Source of the DNA: Thermoplasmata archaeon
GTDB taxonomy: Archaea; Thermoplasmatota; SW-10-69-26; JACQPN01; JAJPHT01
NCBI GenBank assembly: GCA_034667685.1
Contig: JAXDQU010000012.1
Coordinates: forward strand, 11,770 to 75,769
Direction: 5' to 3'
DNA length: 64,000 nt
A model generated the notes under the pieces. That model was not told the origin of the DNA, made no database searches, and saw nothing but the letters and a program-made list of their open reading frames with translations. This document shows, piece by piece, positions 230 through 61,978 of the stretch. Numbering within the stretch: the stretch's first letter is position 1; each line of letters begins with the position of its first letter. A program made the translations under genes and the position numbers.

Positions 230-1564
230 TCAGACAACCCAGGGCTGGATCGTCGTCGCGTCGTCCACGAGCTTCGGCCCGTCGGTCATGCGCGCGAACG
301 TGATGCGTCCGCCCTCGTCGGCGCTGAGCACGGTGACGTAGCTCACCACGAGCGAGCCGTCGGGGGCGATGGCGCACTGCTGGAAGTCGCCCAGCTCGCG
401 GCCGCTCGTGCACGAGACGCCGCCCTGGCAGGGCTCGCCCACGCGCGCGGGCGCGTCGCTCACGCGGCCGCTGACCTCGGTGGGCGTGGCGGTGTCCGCC
501 CCGACGATCGCGCCGGCCGTCTCGTACCATTCCTTCGCCGGGTCGGGCGCGTGGTACCACGAGAGGCCGAGCTTGCCGGGCGCGCCGGCGGCGACCCACA
601 GGAAGAGCGAAAGGCCCGCCTCGTGGAACGCGGTCCGCGGCTCGCTCCACGTCTTGCCCATGTCGTGGCTGTAGACGTACGCGACGTGGCTCGCGCTCTC
701 GCCGGCGCTCTCGGTCCACGCGACGTAGACCGTGCCCGCGGTGTCGGCGACGGTCTGCGGGAAGCTGTCGGTGAGCTTGCGCTCCTTCACGATGATGTCG
801 TCCTTCCACGTCTTGCCCGCGTCGTGGCTCTGCACGAAGTGGAGGTTGCCGCCCTCGGCGATGCTGAAGGCGACGAAGCCGCCCTTCGTCGCGACGATGG
901 GGCCCGGGTCGCCGCCCACGGGGCTCGCGGTCACGGGGGTCCACGACGCGCCGTTGTCGGTCGTCTTGGCGACCTGCACGCCGGGCTGCCCCGAGTAGTC
1001 GAGGTAGAACGTGCCCGCGTGCTCCGGGTCTGGCCAGAGCCACTGGCGGTCGGTGTCGACGTCGCCCGTCGCGCTGCCGGCCTGCCACGTCTCGCCCTTG
1101 TCGGTGCTGTACGACACGCTCTCAGTTGCGAGGCCGAGCTGGTCCGCGACGACGATCGTGCCCTTGCTATCAATGGCGATGTCGCTGTCGGAGCCGCCCG
1201 GGAGATAGCTGTGGTAGGGCGCGGGGCCGAGGCCCGCCTTGAAGGCGAACGTCTTGCCGCCGTCCTTGGACGTCCAGATGGCGCCCTGGAAGAGGCCCTT
1301 GTCCACCATCTTCGTCGCGTCGAGCGGCCGGGTCGCGTACTTGATGAGGCCGGTGGGCGCGGCGACGATGACCATGCCGTCGGCGGCGACCTTGATCGAG
1401 GGCTCGGACGCGATGCGGTCGGCGTCGACGCGCACCGACTTGGCGAACGTGAGGTTCGTGCCCAGCGTGAGGCCGCCCTGCGAGGCGGGACCGACGTCGG
1501 GCGTCTTGACGCAGCCCGCGAGCGAGGCGCCCAGCACGACGAGGACGAGCAGCGCGGCGCGCAC
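230..1564 (-). CDS. Lipoprotein with BNR/Asp-box repeats (sialidase-like beta-propeller)
   Basis: Lipobox LAGC; repeated SxDxGxTW motifs (SKDGGKTF, STDKGETW, SHDAGKTW, SHDMGKTW). Confidence 0.85.
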   Translation of the reverse strand: MRAALLVLVVLGASLAGCVKTPDVGPASQGGLTLGTNLTFAKSVRVDADRIASEPSIKVAADGMVIVAAPTGLIKYATRPLDATKMVDKGLFQGAIWTSKDGGKTFAFKAGLGPAPYHSYLPGGSDSDIAIDSKGTIVVADQLGLATESVSYSTDKGETWQAGSATGDVDTDRQWLWPDPEHAGTFYLDYSGQPGVQVAKTTDNGASWTPVTASPVGGDPGPIVATKGGFVAFSIAEGGNLHFVQSHDAGKTWKDDIIVKERKLTDSFPQTVADTAGTVYVAWTESAGESASHVAYVYSHDMGKTWSEPRTAFHEAGLSLFLWVAAGAPGKLGLSWYHAPDPAKEWYETAGAIVGADTATPTEVSGRVSDAPARVGEPCQGGVSCTSGRELGDFQQCAIAPDGSLVVSYVTVLSADEGGRITFARMTDGPKLVDDATTIQPWVV

Positions 1565-2899
1565 TCAGACCACCCAGGGCTCGGGCGTGCTGTCCAGGAG
1601 CTTCGGGCCCTCGTCGACGCGGGCGAAGGCGACGTGGCCGCCGCTCATGGCGTCCTTGACGATGACGTAGCTCATGACGAGCGTGCCGTCGGGGGCGATG
1701 GCGCACTGCTGGAAGTCGCCCAATTCGCGGCCGCTGGTGCACGTGGTGCCGCTCTCGCAGGGCGGGTAGGGGAGCGCGGCGTCGCCGCCCACGCGCTCGT
1801 CCCACGTCTGGGGGCTGGGCGCGTCCGCGCCGATGACCTCGCCGGCGTGCTCGTAGAACTTCGCGTTGTCGGGCGACTCGTACCACGAGAGGCCCAGCTT
1901 CCCCGGCGAGCCCGCGGCGGCCCAGAGGAAGAGCGCCTTGCCCGTCTCCGAGAACGCGATGACCTTGGGGCTCCACGTCTTGCCCGCGTCGTGGCTGGAG
2001 ACATACGCCGTGTTCGTCTTGTCGCCGTCGTGCTCCTGCCAGAGGACGTAGAGCGTGCCGGCGGTGTCGGCGACGGTGATCGGGAAGTGGTCGAAGAGAC
2101 CCTTGTGGTCCTTGGCGATGACGTCGCTCTTCCACGTCATGCCCTTGTCCTCGCTGTGCGTGTAGAGGATGTCCTGCCCCTGGAAGCTCGTGAACGCCAC
2201 CGTCTGGTTCGTGGCGACGATCGGGCCGGGGCTCGTGCTGGGCGCGTCCGTCTCCACGGCGCTCCACGTCTTGCCCGCGTCGGTCGTCTTGGCGACGTTG
2301 ATCGACACGGCGTTGTGGTCGTAGTTCATGTAGACCGTGCCCGCGGTCGCGGGGTCGGGCCACATCCACATGCGGTCGACGTCAGGCACGCCGCTGCCCA
2401 GGGGCGTCGCCTCCGTCCACGTCGCGCCATTGTCGTTGCTCGTGCTGACCACTTCGAGCGCGAGGCCGAGCTGGTCGGCCATGTAGATCGTGCCCTTGCT
2501 ATCAATGGCGAGGTCCGCGTCCCCCGCGCCCGGCAGCGCGTCGTGGTAGGGGAGCGGCGCCATCTGCGCGAAGCTCCACGTCTTGCCGTTGTCCTTCGAG
2601 GTCCAGATGGCGCTCTGCGCCGCGCCGTTGGGCGCCTCGACCGCGAGGTCCTGCGGGCGCGTCGCGTACTTGACCGAGCCCGTGGGCGCGGCGACGAGGA
2701 TGACGCCCGTCTTCGTGACCTTGATCGAGGGCTCGCTCGCGATGCGCGTCGCGTCGACGACCACCGGCTTGCTCAGGTTGAGCGCCGAGGGAAGGCTCGC
2801 GGCGGGCGCGGAGGCGGGCGCGCCGTTGGGCGCCTGCACGCAGCCCGCAAGGGTGGCGCCCAAGAGTAGGAGGGCCACGACGAAAGGGCGGGGGGACAT
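1565..2899 (-). CDS. Lipoprotein with BNR/Asp-box repeats, tandem paralog of 230..1564
   Basis: Lipobox LAGC, Asp boxes, shared blocks RIASEPSIKV, CTSGRELGDFQQCAIAPDG and C-terminal PWVV. Confidence 0.85.
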   Translation of the reverse strand: MSPRPFVVALLLLGATLAGCVQAPNGAPASAPAASLPSALNLSKPVVVDATRIASEPSIKVTKTGVILVAAPTGSVKYATRPQDLAVEAPNGAAQSAIWTSKDNGKTWSFAQMAPLPYHDALPGAGDADLAIDSKGTIYMADQLGLALEVVSTSNDNGATWTEATPLGSGVPDVDRMWMWPDPATAGTVYMNYDHNAVSINVAKTTDAGKTWSAVETDAPSTSPGPIVATNQTVAFTSFQGQDILYTHSEDKGMTWKSDVIAKDHKGLFDHFPITVADTAGTLYVLWQEHDGDKTNTAYVSSHDAGKTWSPKVIAFSETGKALFLWAAAGSPGKLGLSWYESPDNAKFYEHAGEVIGADAPSPQTWDERVGGDAALPYPPCESGTTCTSGRELGDFQQCAIAPDGTLVMSYVIVKDAMSGGHVAFARVDEGPKLLDSTPEPWVV

Positions 2900-2958
2900 C
2901 GCGCTCCCGAACCGGGGAGGGGGTTATAGACCGCATGGCACGGGGATTGTACATGCCC

Positions 2959-3028
2959 GGGCTCTGGGCTCTGGACTCCGGGCTCAAGGCTCCGGAGCCC
3001 TGAGCCCGGAGTCCAGAGCCCAGAGCCC
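2959..3028. repeat. 70-bp near-perfect palindrome of 7-nt units (GGGCTCT/GGACTCC)
   Basis: 2959-2986 is the exact reverse complement of 3001-3028; inner ggctccggagcc is also palindromic. Confidence 0.95.
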
Positions 3029-3082
3029 CCGCGAAGGATTCTGCAGCAACGCCTATCCGCCCGTGGATGCTGGTGCGGCCCG

Positions 3083-11484: not shown

Positions 11485-12521
11485 GCGCCGCCCCCGCGCT
11501 GCTGCGCCTCGAACCAGCGCACGGCATCGCGCTGCACCAGGAAGACGATGGCGAGGACGTTGAGCGCGGGGATCACGAGCGTCGTGATGGCGAACGCCGC
11601 GCCCACCCCGAAGAGCGCGACCATGGCCCAGCGCGTCCACGCGACGCCGCGCAGGCCTTGTGTCCCGGCGACGATGCCCATCACGCCGAACGCCGCGAGC
11701 GCGAGGGCGGCCAGCGCGCCAAGCTCCGCGGTGGGTGGCCCCGGGTAGGGCAGGGCTCCGGCGAAGCTCGCGTAGATGAGGAGCGCGAACGCGCTGACGC
11801 AGCCGATGGCGCCCAGCACGATCGAGAGCACGCACGCGAAGGTGACGCCGCCCGGCCGCGTCGTCGGCGCGGGATGCGCGGCGACGGGCGGCGCGAGGGC
11901 CCAGGAGGGGGCGCGCGCCGCCGTCCCGCATTGCGTGCAGAACGCCGCGCCGGGCGGCAACGGCGCGCCACACGAGGCGCAGAACGCCGACGCGGGGGAG
12001 GCGGGGGGAGGCGCGGGGGCGGCGGGGGCGCCGGTCTGGTAGGTCGCGAGCGGCCGGCCGTAGTGCGTCTCGGTGCCGCGGTACGCGAGGCCGAGGCGCG
12101 CCAGGACGGCGAGGCTGCGCGCGTTGCCCGGATCGACCACGGCCACGATGCGCGGCAGGCCGATCTCCTCGAAGCCCCAGCGCACGACGCGCCGCGCCGC
12201 CTCCGTCGCGTACCCCTTGCCCCAGGCGGCGCGCGCGAGGCCATAGTAGACCTCCACCTCCTGCGAGTCCTCCAGCGGCATGAGCCCCACCCAGCCCACG
12301 ACCTCGCCGCTGGCCTTCTCCACGATGGCGAAGTGGCGCCGCTGCGGATCCGCGCCCGAAAGCCGCCGCTGGAACGCCGCGCGCGCCTGCTCCGTCGTGA
12401 GCGGCTGGCCGCCGGGCAGATGGCGCATGACCTCGGCGTCCTGCACCAGCCGCAGGTAGGCGGGCTCGTCCTGCGGCTCGTAGGGACGCAGGAGCAGGCG
12501 CTCGGTCTCCAGGGTGGTCAT
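11481..12521 (-). CDS. RimJ/RimL-type GNAT acetyltransferase fused to zinc-ribbon and membrane domain
   Basis: LETERLLLRP, WGKGYATEAA, NARSLAVLARLG; then CASCG..CTQCG and 3-4 hydrophobic helices. Confidence 0.8.
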   Translation of the reverse strand: MTTLETERLLLRPYEPQDEPAYLRLVQDAEVMRHLPGGQPLTTEQARAAFQRRLSGADPQRRHFAIVEKASGEVVGWVGLMPLEDSQEVEVYYGLARAAWGKGYATEAARRVVRWGFEEIGLPRIVAVVDPGNARSLAVLARLGLAYRGTETHYGRPLATYQTGAPAAPAPPPASPASAFCASCGAPLPPGAAFCTQCGTAARAPSWALAPPVAAHPAPTTRPGGVTFACVLSIVLGAIGCVSAFALLIYASFAGALPYPGPPTAELGALAALALAAFGVMGIVAGTQGLRGVAWTRWAMVALFGVGAAFAITTLVIPALNVLAIVFLVQRDAVRWFEAQQRGGGA

Positions 12522-20037: not shown

Positions 20038-20844
20038 ATGCCCTACACGACCTCCGATGGCATCCGCATCGCGTACGACGACCTCGGCAGCGGAGAGACC
20101 GCGCTGCTGCTCATGCCGGGCTGGTGCGGCACGCGCGCCGCCTTCAACCGGGTGGCGCCCCTTCTCGCGCGCCCCCACCGCGTGCTGGCGATGGACTGGC
20201 GCGGGCACGGCGGCTCCGGCGCGGCCGCGGGCGACTTCGGCGAGAAGGAGCTCCTCGACGACGCGCTCGCGGTCGTGCGCGCGAGCGGCGCGAAGCGCGT
20301 CGTGCCCGTCGCGACGGCGCACGCGGGCTGGGTCGCGCTGGCGCTGCGCCAGGCCTTGGGCGCGCGCGTCCCGCAGATCGTGCTGCTCGACTGGATCGTG
20401 ACCGAGGCGCCTCCGCCGTTCCTCGCGGCGCTCGCCGCCATGCAGGACCCCGCGAAGGTGGAGGCGACGCTCGCGCAGGTGTTCGCCATGTGGCGCGACG
20501 GCACGCAGACGCCCGACGTCGAGGCGTTCCTCCAGGTCATGGCGTCGTTCGGCCCTGCGATGTGGGCGCGCGCGGGACGCGAGATCGCCGCCTCGTACGC
20601 GAAGGAGGGGAGCCCGCTCGCCGCGCTGGCGCGCCTGCGCGACGCGCCGCCCGTGCTGCACGCCTACGCACAGCCCAGGGACGCGGGCTTCCTCGCGCTC
20701 CAGGAGGCCTACGCGCGCGAGCACCCCTTCTACCGCGCGAAGGTGCTGCCCGGGCGCACGCACTTCCCGACGATCGAGACGCCCGAGGCGACGGCGGAGG
20801 CGATCGAGGCGTTCCTCGCGCGGCCGCTCACGGCTCCGCCATGA
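20038..20844 (+). CDS. Alpha/beta-hydrolase-fold protein, Hod/Qdo/AqdC-like cofactor-free dioxygenase
   Basis: LLMPGWC, WRGHG, AHAGW, LLDW, WARAGREI, GSP, EHP, THFP are collinear with Hod as I recall it. Confidence 0.7.
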   Translation: MPYTTSDGIRIAYDDLGSGETALLLMPGWCGTRAAFNRVAPLLARPHRVLAMDWRGHGGSGAAAGDFGEKELLDDALAVVRASGAKRVVPVATAHAGWVALALRQALGARVPQIVLLDWIVTEAPPPFLAALAAMQDPAKVEATLAQVFAMWRDGTQTPDVEAFLQVMASFGPAMWARAGREIAASYAKEGSPLAALARLRDAPPVLHAYAQPRDAGFLALQEAYAREHPFYRAKVLPGRTHFPTIETPEATAEAIEAFLARPLTAPP

Positions 20845-21442
20845 ACCGGCGGAACGCGTCGAGCGTCCGCGGCCGCATCGTGTGGTTCGTGCGCTTCTCG
20901 TCGCCCAAGGTGCTCGTGGGCGTCTTGCCGTAGTCGTGGCCCGGCAGCACGATCAGGCCGTCCGGGAGCGCGGGCAGGATCTGCGTGAGCGCGCGATGCA
21001 TGGCGTCCACGTCGGACCCGGGAAGGTCGACGCGGCCGCACTCGCCCACGAAGAGCGTGTCGCCCGTGAGCAGCCATTCGCCGGCGACCTCGTAGCACAT
21101 GCTATCAAAGCGGTGGCCGGGCGTGTGGAGGGCGCGGACGCGGGTCGGGCCGAAGGCGAGGATCTGCCCGTCGCGCAGCTTCACGTCCACGGGATGGTCG
21201 GCGGACTCGTGGGCGACGACGCGCGCGTTCGTCAGCGCCTTCACCCGGGGAATGCCCTTGACGTGGTCCGGGTGGCCGTGCGTCGCCCAGACCTCGGTGA
21301 CGCGCAGGCCGCGCGCCTTCGCCTCCTCCACGAGCCGGTCGGGCTCGAAGCCCGGATCGACCAGCGCGGCCTCGCCGTTCCCCGGATCGACCAGGTAGGC
21401 GAAGTTCTGCATCGGGCCGACGCGGAGCTGGTGGATTTGCAT
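20828..21442 (-). CDS. Metallo-beta-lactamase fold hydrolase (glyoxalase II-like)
   Basis: THGHPDH, HTPGH, TGDTLF, PGHDYG. Confidence 0.9.
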   Translation of the reverse strand: MQIHQLRVGPMQNFAYLVDPGNGEAALVDPGFEPDRLVEEAKARGLRVTEVWATHGHPDHVKGIPRVKALTNARVVAHESADHPVDVKLRDGQILAFGPTRVRALHTPGHRFDSMCYEVAGEWLLTGDTLFVGECGRVDLPGSDVDAMHRALTQILPALPDGLIVLPGHDYGKTPTSTLGDEKRTNHTMRPRTLDAFRRFMAEP

Positions 21443-21502
21443 GCGGGCCTCAGCCTCAGCCTGAGCCTTAGCCCTAAGCCTCCGGCCACGCTGCGCGGCC
21501 TG

Positions 21503-22305
21503 CTCCCGTGGCGCCCGGGGGACCCGAGGATGGTGAATCGGGGCGGCGCATGCGGTTCCAATTCGCACGCTGAGCGTCGGGCTGAACGCGCGGATTGTGC
21601 CACGAGGCCGCCACAAGATGAGCGTCATGCGAATCCGACGCGACACCCCCTCCCCTTGGGTTCGGATCCACGTGCCGCTGGCCTGGCGCATCGGATCCGG
21701 CCCGAGAACTGCTGCTCCTTGGCGCTTTCAAGCCGCTTCCGGTGGAGAGAGAATAACTTCCGATGGGATTCAAGCCGTGCAGCGCCATGCTGTGAGCGGA
21801 TGCGCATGAGCCGACCGACGCTGATCGCCGGTACGTCGCCCCGGTGGATGATCAGGCTCTGGGATGAGTTGGGTCGCGGCGACCGCAGCGTTGGGATGAG
21901 AGAGGTGATCGATCGGTCCATGCAGGCCCCCATGGCCTCGCACAGTTCTGGCCCCCTATCGGTTTCCTGGCAGTCGGGGACCGAAGAATGGATCCAGGTC
22001 CTCCCTGCATCCTTCACTCGCAAGATTCCAGTCTGCAACGACTCGCGCGAGCGCATGACGCTCGCCACGGCGCTTGCGCTGGATTCGTTGCCGCAGCGCC
22101 TCGTCGAGGCAGCGAAGAAAGGACGTCCTTGGAAGCGAAGGTTCCCAGCCGTGGCGTCCCGGTCGCAAACCTACCAATTGCGCTTCCCCGAACTTGAGAT
22201 CCGCGTCATCGCGGGCCGATAAGCGGGTCGGACCCAAGGATCCACGCCGCCGCTCCGACCATGTGCCCGCCTCGGGTCCCCCGGGTCCCTCGGGCGCCAC
22301 GGGAG
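21503..22305. mobile_element. Putative cassette: inverted 9-nt-unit repeats enclosing atypical DNA
   Basis: Left arm 21503-21529 is the reverse complement of right arm 22270-22305 except for one extra 9-nt unit; interior is lower in GC. Confidence 0.6.
21530..22222 (+). CDS. Orphan ORF (230 aa) inside the inverted repeats; true start uncertain (alternative 21806)
   Basis: ATG directly follows the left arm and the frame is open to 22222; no recognisable motif, atypical codons. Confidence 0.35.
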   Translation: MVNRGGACGSNSHAERRAERADCATRPPQDERHANPTRHPLPLGSDPRAAGLAHRIRPENCCSLALSSRFRWRENNFRWDSSRAAPCCERMRMSRPTLIAGTSPRWMIRLWDELGRGDRSVGMREVIDRSMQAPMASHSSGPLSVSWQSGTEEWIQVLPASFTRKIPVCNDSRERMTLATALALDSLPQRLVEAAKKGRPWKRRFPAVASRSQTYQLRFPELEIRVIAGR

Positions 22306-35073: not shown

Positions 35074-35074
35074 G

Positions 35075-37996: not shown

Positions 37997-38956
37997 TTAC
38001 CCCAGCGCCGCCGCCACCATCAAAGGAAGAATCACGGCCGCGTCGCCCTCGACGTTCACGATCCGCGCATCCTCCTTGACCTTGCCCCATGAGATGGCCT
38101 CTTCGAGCCGCGCGCCGGAGAGGGAGCCGTCGTGCTCGACGGCCGTGGTCACGTAGACCGCGTAGTCGAGCCCGCCGCGGAACTGGCTCCACCAGATGAC
38201 GTGGTGCTTGCTGATGCCGCCGCCGATCATGAGGGCGCCGAGCTCCTTCGCGCCGAACGCGAGGTCTGATAGCAGCTGCTCGTCGGCGAGGAGGTCGAAG
38301 CCGATCTGGCGGTCGTGCTGATATCTCGACCAGACCTGCGAGCCCACGCTGCCGTCGGTGGGGCCCGGGATGAAGATGGGGACGTCCTTCTCGTAGCAGG
38401 CGCGCAGCAGGCTCTCTTCGCTGCGCGGCTCCTGCGCGATCCGGCGGCCCAGCTCGCGGGTGAAGTCGCGCGTGCTCCAGCGCTTCTGCGTGGCGAACAT
38501 CTCGACGAGCCAGGGCTGGAGGCGCTCCTCCAGGATCTCGCCGTAGCTCTCGTTGGGCACGAGCACGTTGCCCAGGCGGTTGACCTCCTCCGCGTGGAGC
38601 GCGCGGTCGTCCAGGTCGAAGCTGCCATGATAGTACTCGCGCCACGTGCGCGCCAGGTCATGGTCCAGCGTGCCGCAGGTGGTCACGATGGCGTCCACCA
38701 TGCCGGCGCGCACCATGCCGGTGAAGACGCCGCGCACGCCCGTCGCGCACAGCGCGGCCGGGAAGCTGAGGATCGTGGTGACGCCCTCCCCGCGCATGCG
38801 GCCCAGGATCTCGGCGCCCAGCGCGAGCTTCTTGGCGCTGAACGCGGAGGCCTCGCCCATCTGCGAGACGAGGTCGGCCGCGCGCAGGCCCGGCGAGATC
38901 GCCATGTCCTTCACGGGCGTGAGGCGCGCGCGGATCCCCTTCGGGTCGCGGGTCAT
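37997..38956 (-). CDS. dys: Deoxyhypusine synthase
   Basis: VTTCGTLDHD, NRLGNVLVP, DGSVG, GGGISKHH, DGSLSGARLEEAISWGK. Confidence 0.96.
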   Translation of the reverse strand: MTRDPKGIRARLTPVKDMAISPGLRAADLVSQMGEASAFSAKKLALGAEILGRMRGEGVTTILSFPAALCATGVRGVFTGMVRAGMVDAIVTTCGTLDHDLARTWREYYHGSFDLDDRALHAEEVNRLGNVLVPNESYGEILEERLQPWLVEMFATQKRWSTRDFTRELGRRIAQEPRSEESLLRACYEKDVPIFIPGPTDGSVGSQVWSRYQHDRQIGFDLLADEQLLSDLAFGAKELGALMIGGGISKHHVIWWSQFRGGLDYAVYVTTAVEHDGSLSGARLEEAISWGKVKEDARIVNVEGDAAVILPLMVAAALG

Positions 38957-39046
38957 CGTGCGCGCACCGGGCGCGCGCCGGAAGAGCGTTTCCCATCGAC
39001 GCCCCGGCCACAAGCAGGAATCCTGCCGGCCAGCAGAGGCAAGCGC

Positions 39047-39379
39047 ATGGGAGCCACCCGCCTCGCGCTCTACCTCGTCGGCCTCGTGATCGTCGTCGTG
39101 GCCGCCTGGGTCTTCCTCACGCAGACGCCGGTGGGCCGCCAGGTCCCCTCGAGCCTCGCCCTCGTGCTGATCCTGCTGCTCGTGGGCATCGGCGTCATGG
39201 CCGCCGCGAGCAACATCAACGAGTCGCGCGTCACGCGGCGCGTGGTGCGCGAAGGCGCGCCCGGCTACGTCGCGCCCCCCGCCTACGAGCGCCGCGTCTA
39301 CGACACGCGCTACGCCCCCGGCTACGTCGAGCCGCCCGTTGACGGGGAAACCATCGTCGACGAGCGCCGGTTCGACTGA
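39047..39379 (+). CDS. Small membrane protein (2 TM)
   Basis: Two hydrophobic helices then a Pro/Tyr/Arg tail; host-like codons. Confidence 0.75.
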   Translation: MGATRLALYLVGLVIVVVAAWVFLTQTPVGRQVPSSLALVLILLLVGIGVMAAASNINESRVTRRVVREGAPGYVAPPAYERRVYDTRYAPGYVEPPVDGETIVDERRFD

Positions 39380-39413
39380 GGGTTCATAGGGGCTCCCTCC
39401 CCTTTTTCGGCCA

Positions 39414-41354
39414 GTGGTCCCCCTCGACGCCGAGCTGAAGGCGCTGGCCGCGCTGGTGTCGCTGGCCTTCGCCTCCATCGTGCTGATCGTGCCCGGCCGG
39501 AGCGCGCGCAACCTCTGGCTCGCGGCGTTCCTCCTCCTCATCGCGGGCAACCAGGGCGCCGAGACGATGCGCGCCTTGGGCGGCCCCCACGTGGAGGCGT
39601 GGTACCGCCTCGCGGCGATCTGCGCGGCGATCGACCCGCTCGCGCTCCTCATGTTCGTCTCGGCCGCGCTGGGCCCCGTCGCCCGGCCCTCGCGCCTCTT
39701 CCTGGGCTACGTCCTCCTCGCCAGCGGCGCCCTCGCGCTCTACGCGGGCTGGACGCTGCAGCTCAACCGCGCCACCAACGGCGACCCCGTGGCGTTCAGC
39801 CTGGCGGTCTCCGTCCACACGCTGCTCGTCTACGGCTGGTGCCTCGTCGTCTCCGTGCGCCGCCTCCGCGAAGATCCGACCGCCCCGTGGGGGATCATGA
39901 TCCCGGCCCTGGCCGTGGCGGTCATGCCGCGCGCGATCGACATGCTCAACGCCGTCTTCGCGATCGTCCTGCTGCCGCGGTTCGGCGGCGCGCACGATCC
40001 GCCGCCGTACTTCTACGGCCTGCTCGCGGCCAGCCTCGCCCTCATGGCGCTGATGGTGGGCCTCCTCGTCCGCGAGGCGCGCCGCGCGACGCACCCCGTC
40101 GCCAAGCGCCGGCTCGCGCAGGCCGCGCTGGCCGCGGGCCTCGTGCTTGCCCTCGTGAAGCTCCCCGGCGTCCTCCTGGGCACGCCGCTCATCGGCGAGA
40201 GCCCGCGCATCGATGCCGTGAACTCGTTCCTGGGCCGCTCGGGCGCCGCGGTGCGCTGGCTCGTGTTCGGCGCCTTCGCGTCGGCCATGGTCTTCACCGA
40301 CGAGACGCCGCGCTTCTCGCCGGCGCAGCGCCGCCTCGCCTCGCGCGGTCTCCTGGTCATCGCGTTCATGACGTTCGCGGCCACGCTCCTCGTCGCCATC
40401 TTCGGCACGCTGGGCTACTCCGCCTCGACGCTCGCCGCGGCCGTCTTCGTGGCGCTCGCGGCGCTGGCGCTCTCGCAGGGGTTCCGCGGCCTCGTCGACG
40501 CGACGGCGCGCACGCTCTACGGCGTGCCGCGCCAGGGCGAGGCGGAGGCGCTGCCCGAGACGCGCGTCGGCCCCGGCGCCACGCTGGCCTCGCGCTACCG
40601 CGTCGTGCGCGCGCTCGGGGGCGGCGGATCGGGCGAGACGTTCCTGGCGTGGGACGAGCACCTGCGCCGCGAGGTGGCGCTCAAGGTCGTCCCCGCCTCG
40701 GGCCCCGCGGCGCTGCGCGAGGCGCGCATCGCGGGCGCGGTCCACCACCCCTTCGTCGTCGCGGTCCACGACGTGCTCCAGCGGCGCGCCTCCGTCGTGC
40801 TCGTCATGGAGTACGTCTCGGGCGGCTCGCTCGCCGACCGGATCGAGCGCGAAGGCCCGCTCCCGCTGGCGCAGGGCGCGGCGCTCCTCGACGAGATCGC
40901 GCAGGGCGTCAGCGCCGTGCACGCGCTGGGCGTCGTGCACCGCGACCTGACGCCCGCGAACATCCTGCTCACGCCGGAGGGCCGCCCCAAGATCGCGGAC
41001 TTCGGCATCGCGGGCCGCGTCGGACGGCGCACGCTCGTCCTGGGCGACACGCTCCTGCGGATGGGCACGCCCGGCTTCGTGGCGCCCGAGCAGGCGCGCG
41101 GCGAGACGCCCACCGCGGCCGCGGACGTGTACGCGCTGGGCGTGATGCTGCGCGCGGCGGTGCGCGGCCCGCTCCCCGCGTCGCTGGAGGCCGTCGCCGC
41201 ACGCGCCACGCTGCCCGATCCCGCGAAGCGCTGGCCCGACGCGAAGGCGTTCCTCGACGCGCTGCGGCTAGCGCTCCCAGTACACGAGCGCGCTGCGTCC
41301 GACGTGGACGACGTCGCCGTGCGCGAGCGGCGCGGGCCCCTCGATCCGCCGTAG
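39414..41354 (+). CDS. Multi-TM Hanks-type Ser/Thr protein kinase
   Basis: About 10 N-terminal TM helices; LGGGGSG, VALK, HRDLTPAN, DFG, GTPGFVAPE, DVYALG. Confidence 0.9.
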   Translation: MVPLDAELKALAALVSLAFASIVLIVPGRSARNLWLAAFLLLIAGNQGAETMRALGGPHVEAWYRLAAICAAIDPLALLMFVSAALGPVARPSRLFLGYVLLASGALALYAGWTLQLNRATNGDPVAFSLAVSVHTLLVYGWCLVVSVRRLREDPTAPWGIMIPALAVAVMPRAIDMLNAVFAIVLLPRFGGAHDPPPYFYGLLAASLALMALMVGLLVREARRATHPVAKRRLAQAALAAGLVLALVKLPGVLLGTPLIGESPRIDAVNSFLGRSGAAVRWLVFGAFASAMVFTDETPRFSPAQRRLASRGLLVIAFMTFAATLLVAIFGTLGYSASTLAAAVFVALAALALSQGFRGLVDATARTLYGVPRQGEAEALPETRVGPGATLASRYRVVRALGGGGSGETFLAWDEHLRREVALKVVPASGPAALREARIAGAVHHPFVVAVHDVLQRRASVVLVMEYVSGGSLADRIEREGPLPLAQGAALLDEIAQGVSAVHALGVVHRDLTPANILLTPEGRPKIADFGIAGRVGRRTLVLGDTLLRMGTPGFVAPEQARGETPTAAADVYALGVMLRAAVRGPLPASLEAVAARATLPDPAKRWPDAKAFLDALRLALPVHERAASDVDDVAVRERRGPLDPP

Positions 41355-43537: not shown

Positions 43538-44701
43538 CTACGTCACAAGCTCGGCGAGGCGGCCTTCTTCGGCCCCGCGGCGGATCTCCATCGCGATCCG
43601 GCGACCGGTCGACATCGGGCGCCGCCATGTCGCGTTCCCGTAGGGGTGGCCGACGCCGACGTGGACGTTCGTCCCGCCGCCGATCCTGGGCGCGACGTCG
43701 TAGATGTAGAACTTCATGTCCTTGTCCACGCACGTCTGGAGGCAGAAGGGGCCGATGACGCCGGGCGCGTAGTGCTCCTTCGCGGCGGCGACGAACTTCT
43801 CGCCCAGCGCGAAGGCATCCTCGAGGAGCGACTCGCGCACCGTGGCCGTGTTGTGGCCGACCACCGTCATCTCGGGGATCTTCTGCTTGCCCTGGAGCGT
43901 CAATTGCTGCGCGGCGGGCAGGCGCACGTGGCCGTCCAGGCTCGACTCGAAGCGCCAGTCGACGCCCAACAGCTCCAGGGGCTCCTCGCCGTGGCGCGCG
44001 GCGAGCGGGCTGTGGAAGAAGTTGAAGTTGAACACGGGGCCGATGACGTAGCGCTCGATGCGCGCCTTGTCGAGCGACTCCTGGTCGATGACGCCCTGCG
44101 ATAGCAATTCGCCGCTCTTCTCCTGGTATTCCTGGTATGACGCGGCGGTGAAGAAGCCGCGCTCCAGCTTCTTCTTGGCGTGGTGGAGCTTGACGATGAC
44201 CAGCTCGTTGATATCACGCGGGTCGTTGATCTTCTCGGGGAAGGGGAGCCCGGCCTTCTCCAGGAGCCAGTAGTAGTCGCGCTGCTCGGTGCGCTCCTCG
44301 GTGCGCAGCATCCCGCGGTTGCCGAAGATCGGCACGCGCCACTTGTCCTCGACGTTGTCGATCCCGCAGTAGACGGTGAAGCTGCGGTTGGGCACCCAGA
44401 TGGTGCTCCGGTCGAGCAGGTGCTGCTGGCGCGCGTCCTGCACGACGTCGCCGAAGCGCGGGAGCACCATGCACTCGTCGATGGCGCCGCGCAGGAGCTT
44501 GCCGTGCGCGTCGCGCTGCGCCTTGAAGTAGCGCGCGTAGGTCTTCTCGCGCCCCTGCTGCGCCACCACGAGCGTGCGGAAGCCCTCGTCCGCCGCGCCG
44601 TCCGCGACGTCCAGCGCGCTGTGGCTGCCGATGGCGCCCACGGTGAGCTTGCGCGTATCGTACCGGGCCAACGCTTCCTGCACCGCGGCGCGGGGGATCA
44701 T
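43538..44701 (-). CDS. purP: PurP-family ATP-grasp protein (AICAR formyltransferase, formate-dependent)
   Basis: IGSHSAL, VPNRSF, PIFGNR, ERGFF, IGPFCLQ, DVAPRIGGGTN, MSTGRRIAMEI. Confidence 0.93.
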   Translation of the reverse strand: MIPRAAVQEALARYDTRKLTVGAIGSHSALDVADGAADEGFRTLVVAQQGREKTYARYFKAQRDAHGKLLRGAIDECMVLPRFGDVVQDARQQHLLDRSTIWVPNRSFTVYCGIDNVEDKWRVPIFGNRGMLRTEERTEQRDYYWLLEKAGLPFPEKINDPRDINELVIVKLHHAKKKLERGFFTAASYQEYQEKSGELLSQGVIDQESLDKARIERYVIGPVFNFNFFHSPLAARHGEEPLELLGVDWRFESSLDGHVRLPAAQQLTLQGKQKIPEMTVVGHNTATVRESLLEDAFALGEKFVAAAKEHYAPGVIGPFCLQTCVDKDMKFYIYDVAPRIGGGTNVHVGVGHPYGNATWRRPMSTGRRIAMEIRRGAEEGRLAELVT

Positions 44702-44811
44702 CGGCCCTGCGAGGCGGCGGGCCGGAAAAAGCCTTCCTCGCCCCGGTCCCTGCCAGCGGACTCGATCCGGGCGCCGGGGACGGGGGCCGGACCGGGACGG
44801 TAACAACGTTC

Positions 44812-49901: not shown

Positions 49902-50043
49902 AAACGACGGAACCTCCGCCCGTGACCCCCGTTGGAAACCCGAGAACCCGCGGACCCGACGACCCGAATCCAAAGATCGGGTTTCTCGGGTCCGCGGGTC
50001 CGCGGGTTTTCGCCCAGGTCACGAGGCGGAGATTCCGTCGTTT
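49902..50043. repeat. Long palindromic element with internal ACCCGNGG-type units
   Basis: aaacgacggaacctccgcc-cgtgacc / ggtcacgaggcggagattccgtcgttt outer arms; tandem acccgaga/acccgcgg against ccgcgggt units. Confidence 0.88.
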
Positions 50044-50111
50044 GCCGCCGGCCTTCGCGGGGCCCCCGCCGATCCGAAATCGCATTACCCGAAGCGCGCT
50101 CTCCCGGCGGC

Positions 50112-50888
50112 GTGGCCCCCAAGGAGCCCTCCACGCTCCCCGAACTGCAGGCGACGCACAAGTCCGCGCCGCGCAGCCGGCTCTCGAAGCCCGCGGGCGA
50201 GGCGGACGAGCACTCGGCCGTGCGCAACTACGTGCGCGACCTCATCCTCGGCTTCAACGACGGCCTCGTCTCGGTCTACGCGATCACCGCGGGCGTCGCG
50301 GGCGCGGCGCTGGGCACGCGCGAGATCGCCATCGCGGGCACCGCGGCGGGCGTGGCGGGGGCGCTTTCGATGGGCCTCGGTGAATACCTCTCCACGAAGT
50401 CGCAGGGCGAGTATTACGCGAGCGAGGCGAAGCGGGAGCGCGACCACATCGCCAAGTATCCCAAGCTCGAGCGCGAGGAGCTCCACGACATGCTCGCGAA
50501 GAAGGATTACCCGCCCGAGATGATCCCGCGCCTCGTCGACCACATCGCGGGAGACGCCGACCGCTTCGTGGACTTCATGATGCGCGAGGAGTTCGGCGTG
50601 GGCCAGGAGAGCGACCGCAGCCCGTTCGTCGCGATGGGGCTCGTCATGCTCGCGTTCGTCGTGGGCGCGCTGATCCCGCTTGCCCCCTACTTCCTCGTCC
50701 GCTCGGCGGGCGCGGGCCTCGCCGTGAGCACCGTCCTGGCGCTCGCGGGCCTCTTCGTCGCGGGCAGCGTGAAGAACGTGACCGCGGGCCTGCGCTGGTG
50801 GAAGGGCGGGATCGAGATGCTGGCCCTGGGCGCGCTCGCGGCGCTCATCACGTACGGCGTGGGCCTGCTCTTCCACGTGACCGCCTAA
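50112..50888 (+). CDS. VIT1/CCC1 iron/manganese transporter
   Basis: RDLILGFNDGLVS, AGALSMGLGEYLSTKSQ, AFVVGALIPLAPY. Confidence 0.93.
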   Translation: MAPKEPSTLPELQATHKSAPRSRLSKPAGEADEHSAVRNYVRDLILGFNDGLVSVYAITAGVAGAALGTREIAIAGTAAGVAGALSMGLGEYLSTKSQGEYYASEAKRERDHIAKYPKLEREELHDMLAKKDYPPEMIPRLVDHIAGDADRFVDFMMREEFGVGQESDRSPFVAMGLVMLAFVVGALIPLAPYFLVRSAGAGLAVSTVLALAGLFVAGSVKNVTAGLRWWKGGIEMLALGALAALITYGVGLLFHVTA

Positions 50889-50929
50889 GGTGATATCACG
50901 GACGACGACCTGCTCTCCGACCGACGCTC

Positions 50930-55241: not shown

Positions 55242-55293
55242 TTACCCCCGCGTGCCCGCAACCTCCAAGTCCAGGCAGGCGCTCGCATGGGCG

Positions 55294-55920
55294 ATGCGTC
55301 GCGCGCTCGTGCTGGTCTCGGGCGGCCTGGACAGCACGGTCGCGCTCTGGTGGGCGCGCCAGGCGTGCTCCGAGGTCGTGCCGCTGACCTTCCACTATCC
55401 CGGGCGGCCGCGCGGCGAGAAGAAGGCCACGCGCGAGATCGCGGCGCTGGCGGGCCTGAAGCCCATCGAGGCCGAGCTGCCCTTCCTGCACGAGGCGGCG
55501 GACGTGGACGCGTCGCGCAAGCAGGCGCGCTTCGCCGCCGCGCCGCCCGGCTACATCCCCGCGCGCAACGCGCTCTTCTACGCGGCCGCGTGCTATCAGG
55601 CGAGCGTGCTGGGCTGCGAGATGGTCGTGGGCGGGCACAACGCGGAGGACGCGGCGCGCTTCCCCGACGCCAGCCGCGCGTTCTTCGCCGACCTGCAGGC
55701 GCTGCTCCACCGCGGGCTCTGGAGCGGCCCGGGCGTCCCCGCGCCACGCCTGGAGATGCCGCTGATCGGACTGGACCGCGACGGCGTCGTGACGCTGGGC
55801 GTGGGCCTGGGCGCGCCCATCGACGCGACGTGGTCCTGCTACGAGGACGGCGAGGGTCCCTGCGGCGCGTGCCCGGCGTGCGTGCGGCGCGGCGACCTCA
55901 TCTCGCGCGCGACCGCGTGA
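55294..55920 (+). CDS. queC: 7-cyano-7-deazaguanine synthase-like
   Basis: LVSGGLDST, YIPARN, FPDAS, TWSCY...CGACPACVRR. Confidence 0.85.
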   Translation: MRRALVLVSGGLDSTVALWWARQACSEVVPLTFHYPGRPRGEKKATREIAALAGLKPIEAELPFLHEAADVDASRKQARFAAAPPGYIPARNALFYAAACYQASVLGCEMVVGGHNAEDAARFPDASRAFFADLQALLHRGLWSGPGVPAPRLEMPLIGLDRDGVVTLGVGLGAPIDATWSCYEDGEGPCGACPACVRRGDLISRATA

Positions 55921-56692
55921 AGGCGCTCAACGCGAGCACGGCGAACGCGAGCGCAAGCTCCGGGCCGGGCGTCCGGGCGGGCGTCGAGGCGGCCGGCGTC
56001 GCCGTCGGCTCCGGCGTCGAGGTCGCGGTGGGCGGCAGCGCGGCGTCCGCGAAGAAGAACGATTCCTCGGTGGAAAGGACCGCGCCCGAGGCGTTGACGA
56101 GCGCGACCTGGACGAGATGGTCGCGCTGCGCGAGGCCGACCAGCGGAAGCGTGGCGCCCGTCGCGTTCGGGACGACCGCGCCATCGAGCGTCCAGCGCAG
56201 CGCGAGGCCCGGCCCGAGCGTGCCGTTCTCGACGACCGCCCGCGCCTCGGCAGCGCCGTGGATCGTCGTGCCGTTCGCCGGCGCCGCGAGCCGGACGGTG
56301 GGCGCGGGCGCCTGGACGCGCAGCGCGCCGCGCATGCCCTGCGCGCCGTGCAGCGGGCACGAGTAGGTGATATCACCGACGAAGCCGGCGGGCAGCGTCA
56401 CGGTGAGGTTCGTCTCCCCGCCCGGCGCGATGCAGCAGGGGGCGGCCTCCGAGACCGGCGTCTCGAGCTGCACGCCATGCCGCAGCGCGCCGTGGTTCAC
56501 CAGATGGATCGTGATCGTCGCGCCCGGGAACGCGTGGAGGAGCGGCGCCTGCTGGCCCGCGGCGTCGAGGAAGACGGGCTTGCCGTCGACCTCCGTCGCG
56601 ACGAGCTCCAGCGTGGCGGGCGGCGCGTCGGCGCGCGCGGCGGGCAGGAGCGGCAAGAGAAGGAGCAGGGCGAGGAGCGGCGCGCCGCGCAT
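55898..56692 (-). CDS. Surface cupredoxin + Ig-like domain with PGF-CTERM-like tail
   Basis: Signal peptide; His..YSCPLHGAQGM type-1 Cu motif; T/P linker; TPGP-hydrophobic-RSRAR tail. Confidence 0.78.
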   Translation of the reverse strand: MRGAPLLALLLLLPLLPAARADAPPATLELVATEVDGKPVFLDAAGQQAPLLHAFPGATITIHLVNHGALRHGVQLETPVSEAAPCCIAPGGETNLTVTLPAGFVGDITYSCPLHGAQGMRGALRVQAPAPTVRLAAPANGTTIHGAAEARAVVENGTLGPGLALRWTLDGAVVPNATGATLPLVGLAQRDHLVQVALVNASGAVLSTEESFFFADAALPPTATSTPEPTATPAASTPARTPGPELALAFAVLALSAFTRSRAR

Positions 56693-56718
56693 CGGCGCGG
56701 CCAACGCCCGGGCCTCGT

Positions 56719-57588
56719 TTAGCCGTAGCCGTCGAGCGCGTCGCCGGGCCGCCGCTCGCGCGTGGGCGGGGTGCGGCCGCTCCTGCGCGCGCGGGCCGCC
56801 TCGGAGGCCGCCTTCGCCGCCTCCGCCCGGAGCGCCTCGGCGCGCGGCTGGAGCGCGCGCAGGGCGTCGACGTCGCGGGCGGCCTCGATCTCCTTCGCGA
56901 GCGCGCGCTTCGACTCGCCGCGCCACGCGCCCACCTCCGGCGCGCGCAGGGGCGCCATCGCCGCGTCGCGCGCCGCCGCGAGCCGCTCGGCGGCGTCGAG
57001 CCGCGCTTCGAGCGCATCGAGATCGACGTCCGGGTCCTCACCCAAGGCGGGCATCGCCACGCCGTGACGCTCCGCGCGGCGCCGCGCCTGGACGATGCGC
57101 GACTCAAGACGCGCCTCGCGGGCCGCCGCGCGCCGCCGCGACTCCGCCTCGGCCTCCAGCGGCGAAAGCGCGTCCCACGGCGCCGCTTCGAGCGGCACGT
57201 CCTCGGGAAGCGCGCGTTCGCGCAGCGAGGCGCGATGCAGCGCCGCCTCGGCGAGCGCATCGCGGATCGCGCGGGCACGGCGCAGCGCGGCCGTCGCCCA
57301 GCGGATCTCGCGGTCGATCTCGCGCTGGCCCATGCCGCGCACCTCGTCGGGCGGCACGTCGCGCACGAACGCGAAGCCGCGCAGCGCGTGGAGAAGCTCC
57401 GCCCGCCGCGTCACGGCGAGGTCGCGCCGGAGCGCCACGAAGCGCGCGTGCGCCTCCTTGACGTCGCGCCCCTCCAACGCCGCGAGGGCATGGACGTCTG
57501 CGGCGCGCGCGGTCGGATCGGTCCCGTACTCGCGGCAAAGCTGCGCGAACCGCTCCGAAAGCTGGCCCACGGAACGCGAACGCGCCAA
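56719..57588 (-). CDS. Hypothetical alpha-helical protein
   Basis: Ala/Arg/Glu-rich frame with host-like codons; start uncertain. Confidence 0.6.
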   Translation of the reverse strand: MARSRSVGQLSERFAQLCREYGTDPTARAADVHALAALEGRDVKEAHARFVALRRDLAVTRRAELLHALRGFAFVRDVPPDEVRGMGQREIDREIRWATAALRRARAIRDALAEAALHRASLRERALPEDVPLEAAPWDALSPLEAEAESRRRAAAREARLESRIVQARRRAERHGVAMPALGEDPDVDLDALEARLDAAERLAAARDAAMAPLRAPEVGAWRGESKRALAKEIEAARDVDALRALQPRAEALRAEAAKAASEAARARRSGRTPPTRERRPGDALDGYG

Positions 57589-60767: not shown

Positions 60768-61978
60768 GCGCGGCGCTTCCACCGCTTCACGTCGCGGCCC
60801 GAGAGGCGCAGCCCCCCGCGCGCCTCGACGCGATCGAGGATCTCCTGCTCGTCGAGGTCGCGCAGCCCGCGCGGCCCCTCGACGCCCGCCGCCACGAGCG
60901 CCACCGCGCTGTCGATGGGCACGCCGACCTCCTGCACAAGGTTCGCGACGTGGAGCCACGAGGCGAGCGCGTCCGCGGCGAGGCCGGTGCGCGAGGCGAG
61001 GTCGTGCGGGTCGTGGCCGGCCAGCGACGCGAGGCCGTCGACGCCCGCGTCGCGCAGCGCCTGCTCCTCCGCGGGGCCCACGCCGCGCAGCCGGCGCAGG
61101 TCGGTCTCCCCGGTCTCCTCGCCGAGCACCTCGGCCTCGATGGGCTCGTCCTCGACGATCGTCGCCTCGAGGATCTCCTCGTCCGGCAGGACCTCCATCT
61201 CGACGACCTCCTCCTCGACTGGCTGGGGCTGAGGCTCGGGTGGGGGCTCGTCCGCGAAGATCTCCTCCGGGGGCGCCCAGGGCGAGGCGGGCTCCTCCTC
61301 CACGAGGGGCTCGACGGGCACCTCCTCCACGGGCTCCGGCTCGGGCTGCTCGTCCGGCTGCGGCTCGGGCTCCGGCTCCGCGGGCGGGCGGAAGATGTAG
61401 TCGGACTCCGTCTCGGGCTCGACGAAGGGCTGCGGCTCCGCGACGGGCTCGGGCTCGCGGCGCGCCACCTCGAACCCCTCGTCCTCCACGACCGTCTCGC
61501 CGCGCGAGACCTCGAAGAGATCGTCCGTGGGCTCCACGGCCGCCACCTCGTCGTCGAACGTGGGCTCCGGTTCCGGCTCCGGCTCACGGACGGGCATCAC
61601 GGCCTCGGCGGGCTCGTCCTGCGCGTCCGCCATCAGCGGGACCGGCGGCGCCTCGACCAGGGGCTCGGTGATGATATCATAGAGCGGCAGCGGCGCGGGC
61701 TGGGGCTCGGGCTGAGGCTGAGGCTGAGGCTGAGGCTGGGGGGCTGCGGGCGGGATGACGACCGGCGCCGCGGCGGGCGGGAGCGAGGGGCGCTCCAGGA
61801 TGACCGAAGTGCGCGTGGCGACGCGGACCGCGACCTGGCGGTGGAGGCGCGCGCAGACGCCGCACAGGAGGTCCTGGTCCTTCACCGGCTGCGCGAGGCA
61901 CGCCTCGCAGGGCAGGTAGTCGAGCACGAGGCGGAGCTTCGAGCTGGCGTCAGGAAGGTCGCCGGCCATCGCAGCCAT
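60764..61978 (-). CDS. Zn-finger + Pro/Glu-rich linker + helix-hairpin-helix (DUF4332-like) protein
   Basis: CEAC..CGVC; long PEPE/PQPQ region; DLRRLRGVGP..ALRDAGV. Confidence 0.75.
   Translation of the reverse strand: MAAMAGDLPDASSKLRLVLDYLPCEACLAQPVKDQDLLCGVCARLHRQVAVRVATRTSVILERPSLPPAAAPVVIPPAAPQPQPQPQPQPEPQPAPLPLYDIITEPLVEAPPVPLMADAQDEPAEAVMPVREPEPEPEPTFDDEVAAVEPTDDLFEVSRGETVVEDEGFEVARREPEPVAEPQPFVEPETESDYIFRPPAEPEPEPQPDEQPEPEPVEEVPVEPLVEEEPASPWAPPEEIFADEPPPEPQPQPVEEEVVEMEVLPDEEILEATIVEDEPIEAEVLGEETGETDLRRLRGVGPAEEQALRDAGVDGLASLAGHDPHDLASRTGLAADALASWLHVANLVQEVGVPIDSAVALVAAGVEGPRGLRDLDEQEILDRVEARGGLRLSGRDVKRWKRRA

Follow-up and report, generated by a model that had tools for sequence, protein, structure and literature searches.

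Short words repeated far beyond chance, such as HIP1, uptake sequences and Chi, are among the clearest cases in which forces other than protein function shape coding sequence. HIP1 (GCGATCGC) is an 8-bp palindrome that is 15-300x over-represented, lies inside genes and has lineage-specific alternates (PMC5861425; PMC4390886), with a density of 300-2700 per Mb (PMC4390886). Explanations offered for it include selection for chromosome structure, a methyl-directed repair ratchet and, most recently, DNA uptake (PMC13756078). The subject here is an archaeal octamer, the palindrome TGATATCA, together with its one-sided variant TGCTATCA (TGATAGCA on the opposite strand), in a 64-kb window (G000:C12:11770-75769, the whole stretch of DNA that was analysed; 70-76% G+C) and throughout the assembly that holds it, G000 (3,481,428 bp in 124 contigs, the longest of 167 kb, 71.1% G+C).

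Periodic spacing of 10-90 kb is a criterion for HIP1, the cause of which has been open for some three decades; Elhai reportedly found in 2015 that genomes rich in HIP1 possess a methyltransferase with specificity for it or for its core, and Xu et al. are said to have shown in 2018 that HIP1 sites are conserved between genomes beyond neutral expectation. Like HIP1, TGATATCA is an 8-bp palindrome and the top over-represented octamer of its genome (94x), dispersed by substitution inside unrelated genes, with common one-off variants of the outer letters and a variant word that differs between lineages. Unlike HIP1, it has an archaeal host, is AT-rich in a genome of 71% G+C, is of recent, genus-level origin, is less dense (109 palindromes per Mb, or 203 sites per Mb once the variant is added) and is accompanied by a co-enriched asymmetric variant (A or C at letter 3); furthermore, no cognate methyltransferase was found in the searches described below and positional conservation is weak.

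Other systems are more distant. The DNA uptake sequences (DUS) of Neisseria and uptake signal sequences (USS) of the Pasteurellaceae, which are thought to accumulate by drive, are also short, lineage-specific words found on both strands about once per few kb in permissive frames (PMC4390886). They belong to naturally competent bacteria, however, are 9-12-mers that lack palindromic symmetry and have a flanking context, and we know of no such uptake system for this archaeal lineage. Chi is likewise a word of octamer scale that marks self DNA about every 5 kb, but it is asymmetric, co-oriented with replication and read by RecBCD or AddAB, whereas the main form here is a palindrome with no clear orientation bias in an archaeal host. 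The skews left by very-short-patch repair in E. coli (CCWGG/CTAG), which are modest in size, also reflect a sequence-directed force at the DNA level, and the CTAG-containing word TGCTAGCA is depleted here too, but those skews are tied to Dcm and Vsr, whereas the enrichment here is ~40-90x in a genome from which Vsr is absent. The archaeal word is a variant of a kind already known, the genome-wide iterated word, and the finding is real, strong and unusual. No published report of it came up in the literature searched, supplements being outside the scope of the search, and none of the best 25 of 925 papers that contain the string deals with its genome-wide enrichment.

Abundance of the word in the window and the genome

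A sequence-only reading of the window had reported 13 exact matches to the degenerate pattern TG(A/C)TA(G/T)CA (TGMTAKCA) and roughly estimated a chance expectation well under one. All 13 were found where it placed them, dinucleotide shuffling gives 0.47±0.63, and 13 or more occurred in 0/100 shuffles. Its 13 additional one-mismatch positions are all confirmed, letter 1 or letter 8 being the one that differs every time, but 12 matches with an internal mismatch had been overlooked and the class as a whole is at chance (25 seen vs ~22.8 expected; 38 vs 23.2±5.0 for at most one mismatch), so that its density of one motif per 2.5 kb has to be replaced by one exact site per 4.9 kb.

Across G000, TGATATCA occupies 378 sites. 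Base composition predicts 8.0 both-strand counts where 756 are seen (94x), which puts the word ahead of all other 8-mers with at least 100 counts; the next unrelated ones, codon-driven words of GAAGAA type, reach ~20x. The variant TGCTATCA/TGATAGCA has 329 sites (16.7x) and CGATATCA/TGATATCG has 164 (8.3x), while all remaining single-letter variants lie at 0.1-3.6x; the letter preferences are T over C at letter 1 and A over C at letter 3, with none at letter 2. Of the words covered by the pattern first proposed, TGCTAGCA does not share the enrichment of TGATATCA and TGCTATCA/TGATAGCA: it is depleted (6 counts over both strands vs 48.5 expected) and occupies 1/5409 accessible coding positions, where an accessible position is one at which a word can be written by synonymous changes alone, counted per frame in G000. 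The pattern was therefore slightly too wide. The depletion fits a general avoidance of CTAG and might be related to an N6/N4 methylase found across the order.

The signal is confined to the eight letters. Among 745 GATATC sites in G000 both the T and the A flank are present in 378, flanks beyond the eight letters show no conservation, and the 705 testable sites fall into 696 flank clusters, from which it follows that the word is neither a repeat family nor a single hotspot. A repeat family or mobile element was accordingly rejected.

Genes were called with a crude GC3-based picker of open reading frames (ORFs), which gave 2984 ORFs covering 82% of G000 with unreliable start codons; 560/707 sites lie in called genes. 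Shuffling synonymous codons within genes (20 shuffles) left 6.7±2.6 copies of TGATATCA (maximum 11) vs 286 observed, 8.4±2.0 of TGCTATCA vs 195 and 1.8±1.3 of TGATAGCA vs 68. A first-order codon chain that keeps all dicodon counts, and that absorbs part of the signal, predicts 9.9 occurrences of nnT GAT ATC Ann vs 256 and 3.0 of nnT GAT AGC Ann vs 63. The proposal that the word overrides codon bias thus holds genome-wide, the enrichment persisting over both the codon- and the dicodon-preserving null. The word relies on the rarest codon of each family concerned (GAT 11.8%, ATA 1.1%, CTA 1.0%, TCA 2.0%), and 196 of all 911 CTA codons in G000 are followed by TCA.

A cause at the level of protein, RNA or codons (a favoured peptide, a codon-pair effect, a promoter box or a structured RNA) would find some encouragement in the 256/286 coding copies that are read in one frame as Asp-Ile, and in nine copies at -30 to -21 from predicted starts vs 2-4 in adjacent bins. 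It is nevertheless scarcely credible, as it conflicts with the data on frame and strand: the words are found in three frames, TGCTATCA is in excess both sense (23x) and antisense (38x) to the gene, the codons involved are the rarest ones and Asp-Ile as a dipeptide shows no excess (0.91 of expectation). This enrichment in both orientations and three frames argues for a force on double-stranded DNA rather than on a peptide, codon pair or mRNA; together with the unrelated flanks, it bears out the earlier suggestion that the signal lies in the DNA word and is not a single mutational hotspot. A promoter element (BRE/TATA), which would lie at a fixed position upstream of transcription units, was rejected, since most sites are inside called genes and upstream of 48 tRNA genes the boxes are of a different, AAATAGGG type, with TATCA in two of them. 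The excess just before predicted starts (-10 to -1) is artefactual and stems from the TGA within the word, since TGA defines the ORF starts.

The 13 exact sites of the window are listed with the strand of the word; the strand of each gene follows its coordinates.

1165 to 1172, plus strand: TGCTATCA in the gene of a BNR-repeat protein (233-1564, minus), ATT GAT AGC AAG (I-D-S-K)
2497 to 2504, plus strand: TGCTATCA in the tandem paralogue (1568-2899, minus), at the same position as site 1165, ATT GAT AGC AAG
21100 to 21107, plus strand: TGCTATCA in gene 20831-21691 (minus), TTT GAT AGC ATG (F-D-S-M)
29857 to 29864, plus strand: TGCTATCA outside called genes, in the spacer between 27730-29496 and 30011-31603
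31910 to 31917, palindrome: TGATATCA in an aminotransferase gene (31653-32837, minus), CGT GAT ATC ATC (R-D-I-I)
34091 to 34098, minus strand: TGATAGCA (TGCTATCA on the minus strand) outside called genes
35031 to 35038, palindrome: TGATATCA in a lumazine synthase gene (34669-35286, minus), TAT GAT ATC ACG (Y-D-I-T)
38267 to 38274, minus strand: TGATAGCA in a deoxyhypusine synthase ORF (37997-39652, minus), CTG CTA TCA (L-L-S)
44209 to 44216, palindrome: TGATATCA in a purP-like gene (43541-44806, minus), CGT GAT ATC AAC (R-D-I-N)
50891 to 50898, palindrome: TGATATCA outside called genes, directly after gene 49932-50885
55591 to 55598, plus strand: TGCTATCA in gene 55252-55917 (plus), TGC TAT CAG (C-Y-Q)
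56368 to 56375, palindrome: TGATATCA in gene 55901-56926 (minus), GGT GAT ATC ACC (G-D-I-T)
61672 to 61679, palindrome: TGATATCA in gene 60950-62956 (plus), GAT GAT ATC ATA (D-D-I-I)

The rare-codon contexts quoted from the window are right for ATT GAT AGC (1165 and 2497), TTT GAT AGC (21100), CGT GAT ATC (31910 and 44209) and TAT GAT ATC (35031), while CTA TCA AAA came from reading site 21100 on the wrong strand. A diverged paralogue on contig C61 bears the word at the same place as site 61672. The two tandem paralogues at 233-1564 and 1568-2899 (minus strand) are each of 444 aa, with BNR/Asp-box repeats in the first, and both hold TGCTATCA at the same codon despite diverged flanks; further paralogue pairs and one triple in G000 likewise have sites in common.

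Genus restriction, saturation and apparent protein cost

G000 was compared with four other species of its genus (G001-G004, here called congeners), whose orthologous genes are ~70-87% identical in DNA, and with ten further genomes of the order, including four other genera of the same family (G007 represents an outgroup genus); the comparison of sites with G003 used 400 kb of that genome, and the comparison of gene order its contigs C33 and C15. The public title of the contig of G003 that bears purP, C33, is 'Proteobacteria bacterium', but its genes and its close relatives are archaeal and it is probably from a mislabelled bin. The host of the word is an archaeon of the Thermoplasmatota. The window itself holds archaeal genes, namely PurP (DUF1297/DUF1246), deoxyhypusine synthase and a Rad50-like ATPase, and further archaeal markers of G000 are NucS and, in the operon of the array described below, Csl4, RpoL and TruD.

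TGATATCA has 378 sites in G000 and 210, 141, 111 and 53 in the other members of the genus, corresponding to 17 to 109 per Mb, against 0-7 in the ten other genomes of the order, 2-5 in the family's four other genera and 0-9 in the rest of the order and class. The variant TGCTATCA follows the same boundary (329, 151, 229, 72 and 63 sites among the five species, 1-10 in the ten other genomes), with a variant to palindrome ratio of 0.65 to 1.6 among congeners, and TGATATCA is also the top 8-mer in the 400 kb of G003 (73x). The word arose at the base of one genus, and its density has since come to differ among the five species. An archaeal, young, genus-confined word that is graded from 17 to 109 per Mb over five species against a clean background (0-7 copies in sister genera) is a useful case, because its causal factor should be findable by phyletic profiling and its force measurable. 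It is also of relevance to codon-usage models, to binning and taxonomic signatures and to the spotting of foreign DNA in these genomes.

The extent to which coding-permitted positions are filled depends on the frame, as follows for G000.

nnT GAT ATC Ann: 256/566 accessible positions occupied, 45%
nTG ATA TCA: 30/293, 10%
TGC TAT CAn: 29/30, 97%
nTG CTA TCA: 157/976, 16%
nnT GAT AGC Ann: 63/498, 13%
nnT GCT ATC Ann: 9/903, 1%
nTG ATA GCA: 5/707, 0.7%

The force can thus push 45% of permissive Asp-Ile sites to a rare codon pair. Where seven letters of TGATATCA are in place and the eighth is synonymous, that last letter also fits 65-89% of the time; the corresponding figures for TGCTATCA span 26-97%, with the minimum at letters 1 and 4 of the C-bearing half-site. 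From codon usage no more than 12% would be expected, except at letters that the preferred codon supplies anyway, and even the rare ATA codon is chosen in 30/37 completion cases. Letters 2 and 7 (G and C) are matched in all seven-of-eight cases, letter 2 well above codon usage, which indicates that the pull is not limited to A/T letters. None of the eight letters escapes it, and it grows with the number of letters already in place; interpreted in simple terms of mutation, selection and drift, the last step shifts the odds by an inferred ~e^4 to e^4.5. The census of YGAYRTCR is U-shaped, with 1058, 840, 291, 220 and 378 sites at 0 to 4 transitions toward TGATATCA, and the complete word acts as an attractor. 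A deamination sink, in which C>T changes alone convert YGAYRTCR to TGATATCA, was rejected as sole cause, given that transversions are common and that letters 2 and 7 are pulled to G/C; it is also at odds with TGCTATCA, which needs C>A changes.

The word is apparently written against amino-acid choice as well, at some protein cost. The codon after Asp-Ile starts with A in 564/1416 cases in G000 (39.8%) and 48/135 in G003 (35.6%), about double the 30/159 (18.9%) of the outgroup G007, which equals the general share of such codons (17-19%), and T is the last letter of the codon before Asp-Ile in 25.5% of cases in G000, 14.1% in G003 and 0% in G007. When 47 coding sites of G000 were aligned without gaps to G003, eight were identical, 11 differed synonymously only and 28 differed in an amino acid, six of these 28 unpolarised differences being Asp-Val vs Asp-Ile.

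Four window sites could be aligned with relatives, none of which has the identical word. At site 31910 the relatives have TGAGGTCG, TGATGTCG, CGAGGTCG or CAAGGTCG, at site 35031 G003 has TGATATCG, and at site 44209 G003 has CGC GAC ATC ACC. At site 38267, 3/5 aligned relatives (G001, G004 and G007) have a serine codon of the other family together with Lys, AAG CTC AGC in G001, implying a serine codon-family switch plus a Lys/Leu amino-acid change. Alignments of G000 with G003 are gap-free around the site in 45/60 cases, and an origin of sites by insertion was set aside, as the excess of gaps (15/60 vs 13.2% background, P=0.019) is weak and may be alignment noise.

A candidate DNA reader and rival explanations

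What these data establish is that point substitutions have put the word, on either strand and wherever the protein allows, into hundreds of genes and spacers that have nothing to do with one another. The cause held, with modest confidence, to be the likeliest is that TGATATCA and its one-sided variant TGCTATCA form a genus-specific iterated word, comparable to HIP1 and to uptake sequences, that is read by a lineage-specific DNA reader. Such a reader, likely a dimer, would recognise the word in double-stranded DNA and tolerate A or C at letter 3 of one half-site. Each site would confer a small advantage, either in fitness or, through gene conversion or transfer, in transmission. That advantage would be measured by the final-step log-odds shift of ~4-4.5, and sites would accumulate until the coding-permitted positions are almost saturated.

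The best hint that a protein may bind the word comes from the only place in G000 with at least three clustered copies of the relaxed 7-mer GMTATCA, a spacer for which counterparts with GCTATCA/TGATAGC arrays are present in congeners.

G000:C106:~96040-96110, array spacer, ~5 copies
G003:C33:188576-188670, array spacer, ~5 copies
G004:C109:~2950-3060, array spacer, 6-7 copies, four of them direct at steps of 11-15 bp
G001:C109:~12330-12440, array spacer, 6 copies

G002 has a single copy, and the readable outgroup spacers (G005, G010, G016) are short, GC-rich and free of the word. The array lies in a translation and RNA-processing operon, between a 144-aa gene and the gene of an MTS-type (METTL5-like) methylase that heads a Csl4-RpoL-TruD cluster, and in three species TGATAGC overlaps the ATG of the methylase gene. 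A structured RNA was rejected, an Rfam search of the array having given no match up to E=1. Elsewhere in G000 close pairs of sites are scarcer than when occupancy is randomised among accessible positions (none within 50 bp vs 4.2, P=0.01; 12 within 200 bp vs 18.9, P=0.037). Since an array of 5-7 copies is present in 4/5 species while close pairs are otherwise avoided, a bound protein is favoured over a pure repair ratchet.

As to the identity of a reader, the 144-aa gene upstream of the array was discarded because it is kept in 19/21 genomes of the class and is not genus-specific, and a 172-aa neighbour because it is present in only 2/4 congeners. Two genes next to the array operon encode proteins with Resolvase and Recombinase domains and, by eye, an intact Arg-Ile-Ser motif; their relatives carry the public names 'recombinase family' and 'Pin-like DNA invertase'.

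G000:C106:91489-92493, minus strand, recombinase-like A, 335 aa
G000:C106:90610-91470, plus strand, recombinase-like B, 287 aa

Copy A has 82-92% identity among the congeners, falling to 54% in G007; copy B, which lies 3.6-7.8 kb from the array, is 64-77% identical, adjoins A in all four congeners and is thus present in 5/5 species of the genus. Outside the genus, G007 and G006 have a single A-like copy, G008 weak matches only, G005 (72% complete) none, and genomes of other families of the order 0/6. The pair appears to be inherited vertically rather than mobile, and by these comparisons B is a genus-specific duplicate with a distribution matching that of the word. There is a small chance that B is the reader, and it is treated as a lead only, because many other genes could share its phyletic pattern. 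A bolder version of the favoured reading, in which the word arose in the genus with a new dedicated reader, possibly this duplicate of a domesticated serine recombinase, and spread by conversion- or transfer-like drive as the first archaeal 'self-DNA watermark', is doubtful, though it deserves a hearing. If true, the word would be an independent and much younger counterpart of HIP1 whose drive overrides codon choice and shifts amino-acid usage genome-wide, and whose causal gene could be found across the five density-graded species.

Accumulation with no benefit to the cell, by molecular drive through biased DNA transfer (an archaeal counterpart of uptake sequences or a packaging or transfer signal), seems unlikely. 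Fragments with the word would enter cells of the genus, or pass between them, in preference to others and then be recombined into the genome. The presence on both strands, in permissive frames and in native DNA, the lineage specificity and the species-specific positions are the pattern of uptake sequences, and close pairs would be scarce if one site per fragment suffices. HIP1 itself has lately been proposed to act via DNA uptake (PMC13756078; 10.1101/2024.09.10.611283). The 8-bp core with no flank signal is, however, unlike the longer, non-palindromic uptake sequences with their flank preferences, and transfer leaves the spacer array unexplained. Sequence-specific DNA uptake is, to our knowledge, not known in archaea, and the literature searched held no report of it. 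ComEC had a match in 0/15 genomes of the order, a result that is uninformative as archaeal control genomes also gave none.

Elhai's ratchet, methylation-linked biased mismatch repair in which a methyltransferase marks the word and short-patch or methyl-directed repair corrects near-matches toward it, is improbable. An 8-bp palindrome is a typical target of type II enzymes, completion at seven of eight letters is far above codon expectation, variants at letters 1 and 8 are the commonest, as reported for HIP1 (PMC4390886), and two DNA methyltransferases are conserved in the lineage. One, a C5 methylase of 314 aa (G000:C63:5378-6319), has a single orthologue in 14/15 genomes of the order at 44-91% identity, which suggests an old, vertically kept gene; the other is the N6/N4 methylase G000:C106:108905-109960, conserved across the order. 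Both are older than the word, their orthologues in word-free outgroup genera of the family being 57-68% identical. Searches of the order genomes with PF02086, PF01555, PF00145, PF02384 and PF07669 found no genus-specific methyltransferase, and PF05063 (MT-A70) matched nothing in any genome and is uninformative; the idea of a modification site, raised from the window, thus finds no support in six Pfam families. The D12/EcoRV class is absent from G001-G004, its sole match in G000 being a DUF1156 enzyme on the low-GC contig C118, and the N6_Mtase and Eco57I families show no genus pattern. Solved structures were of no help with specificity, giving only generic similarity to M.HaeIII/M.HhaI and a Thermus methylase, and a change of specificity in a conserved methyltransferase is still conceivable. 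On the repair side, Vsr is absent from G000 (99% complete) and G001, NucS is order-wide, a weak MutS-like gene occurs in the whole family and one further family, and no genus-specific mismatch-repair gene was found among these genomes. Furthermore, the changes go toward all four bases, including the transversions CTC>CTA and ATC>ATA, and a ratchet would predict neither the array nor the scarcity of close pairs.

Several observations weigh against the favoured reading of a lineage-specific DNA reader. Spacing is Poisson (gap coefficient of variation 1.0; 20-kb bins with mean 4.16 and variance 4.05 for 707 sites), with no sign of an architectural period or of a coverage rule. Conservation among orthologues, proposed as a test from the window, is largely lacking: a search of the 400 kb of G003 with 698 sites from G000 yielded 60 alignable sites, 8 of them identical, and the reverse search of G000 with 42 G003 sites yielded 23, of which 8 were identical. 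Sharing at positions accessible in both species is marginal (2x2 counts of 3, 1, 4 and 17; odds ratio 12.8, P=0.053, n=25), and with 31-45% occupancy much of it could be parallel gain; at 45% occupancy the test does not separate function from drive. The rate of amino-acid differences is 48/169 in motif codons vs 190/825 in the flanks (P=0.14), which is not significant, and an additive binding-energy model fails to predict why TGCTATCA occupancy is 13-16% with letters 5 and 8 free but ~1% with letters 1 and 4 free. The recombinase duplicate is the sole lead to a reader, and that lead, come upon while inspecting the neighbourhood of the array, rests on phyletic pattern and proximity. Finally, the ends of blocks collinear between G000 and G003 do not favour the word, with 2/123 in G003 and 3/123 in G000 lying within 100 bp of it vs 2.0% and 4.3% at random.

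The block ends also bear on the notion that the word marks recombination sites of a genome-scrambling, site-specific recombinase. Gene order between G000 and G003 falls into 38-39 collinear chains per 200 kb at ~80% DNA identity, and the conserved serine-recombinase-like pair includes one genus-specific member. With block ends at random frequency, rearrangement breakpoints at the word were rejected, many of the breaks are contig ends of the 124-contig assembly, and such a role is very unlikely.

Distribution along the contigs and minor features

With its 707 sites Poisson-dispersed and no cluster at the four orc1/cdc6 loci, the genome disfavours the ParB-like (parS) or origin-linked site suggested from the window, and an origin element (ORB) was rejected on the latter ground. 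The suggested Chi-like signal is disfavoured by the palindromic main form, by the near-even orientation of TGCTATCA (173:156 in G000) and by a weak link with GC skew (chi-square 5.0, P=0.025) that is confounded by gene strand (75:18 and 24:55); replichore bias was dismissed for the same reason. With a modification site unsupported as well, the functions suggested from the window are narrowed to an uptake-sequence-like or a nucleoid-protein-like role.

Site density rises with G+C (r=0.45) though the word is AT-rich, and the word is weaker in foreign-looking low-GC contigs. C42 (62.6 kb, 66.4% GC), which bears an extra orc1/cdc6 gene, has 3 sites vs 12.7 expected (P=0.0013), and C118 (81.5 kb, 67.4% GC), which bears the DUF1156 methylase, has 7 vs 16.5 (P=0.007). 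Both are likely foreign, integrated or plasmid-like or mobile DNA, or mis-binned contigs.

The deoxyhypusine synthase ORF at 37997-39652 (minus strand) is 551 aa long with its DS domain at residues 260-548 only, and the long stretch ahead of that domain may come from a start called too far upstream or may form an additional domain. Elsewhere in G000, (CTCAGC)n microsatellites of ~18-20 units occur at G000:C8:~89930-90070 and on contigs C106, C32, C52, C13, C99 and C115, and the 10-mer CTCAGCCTCA/TGAGGCTGAG has 228 matches genome-wide.

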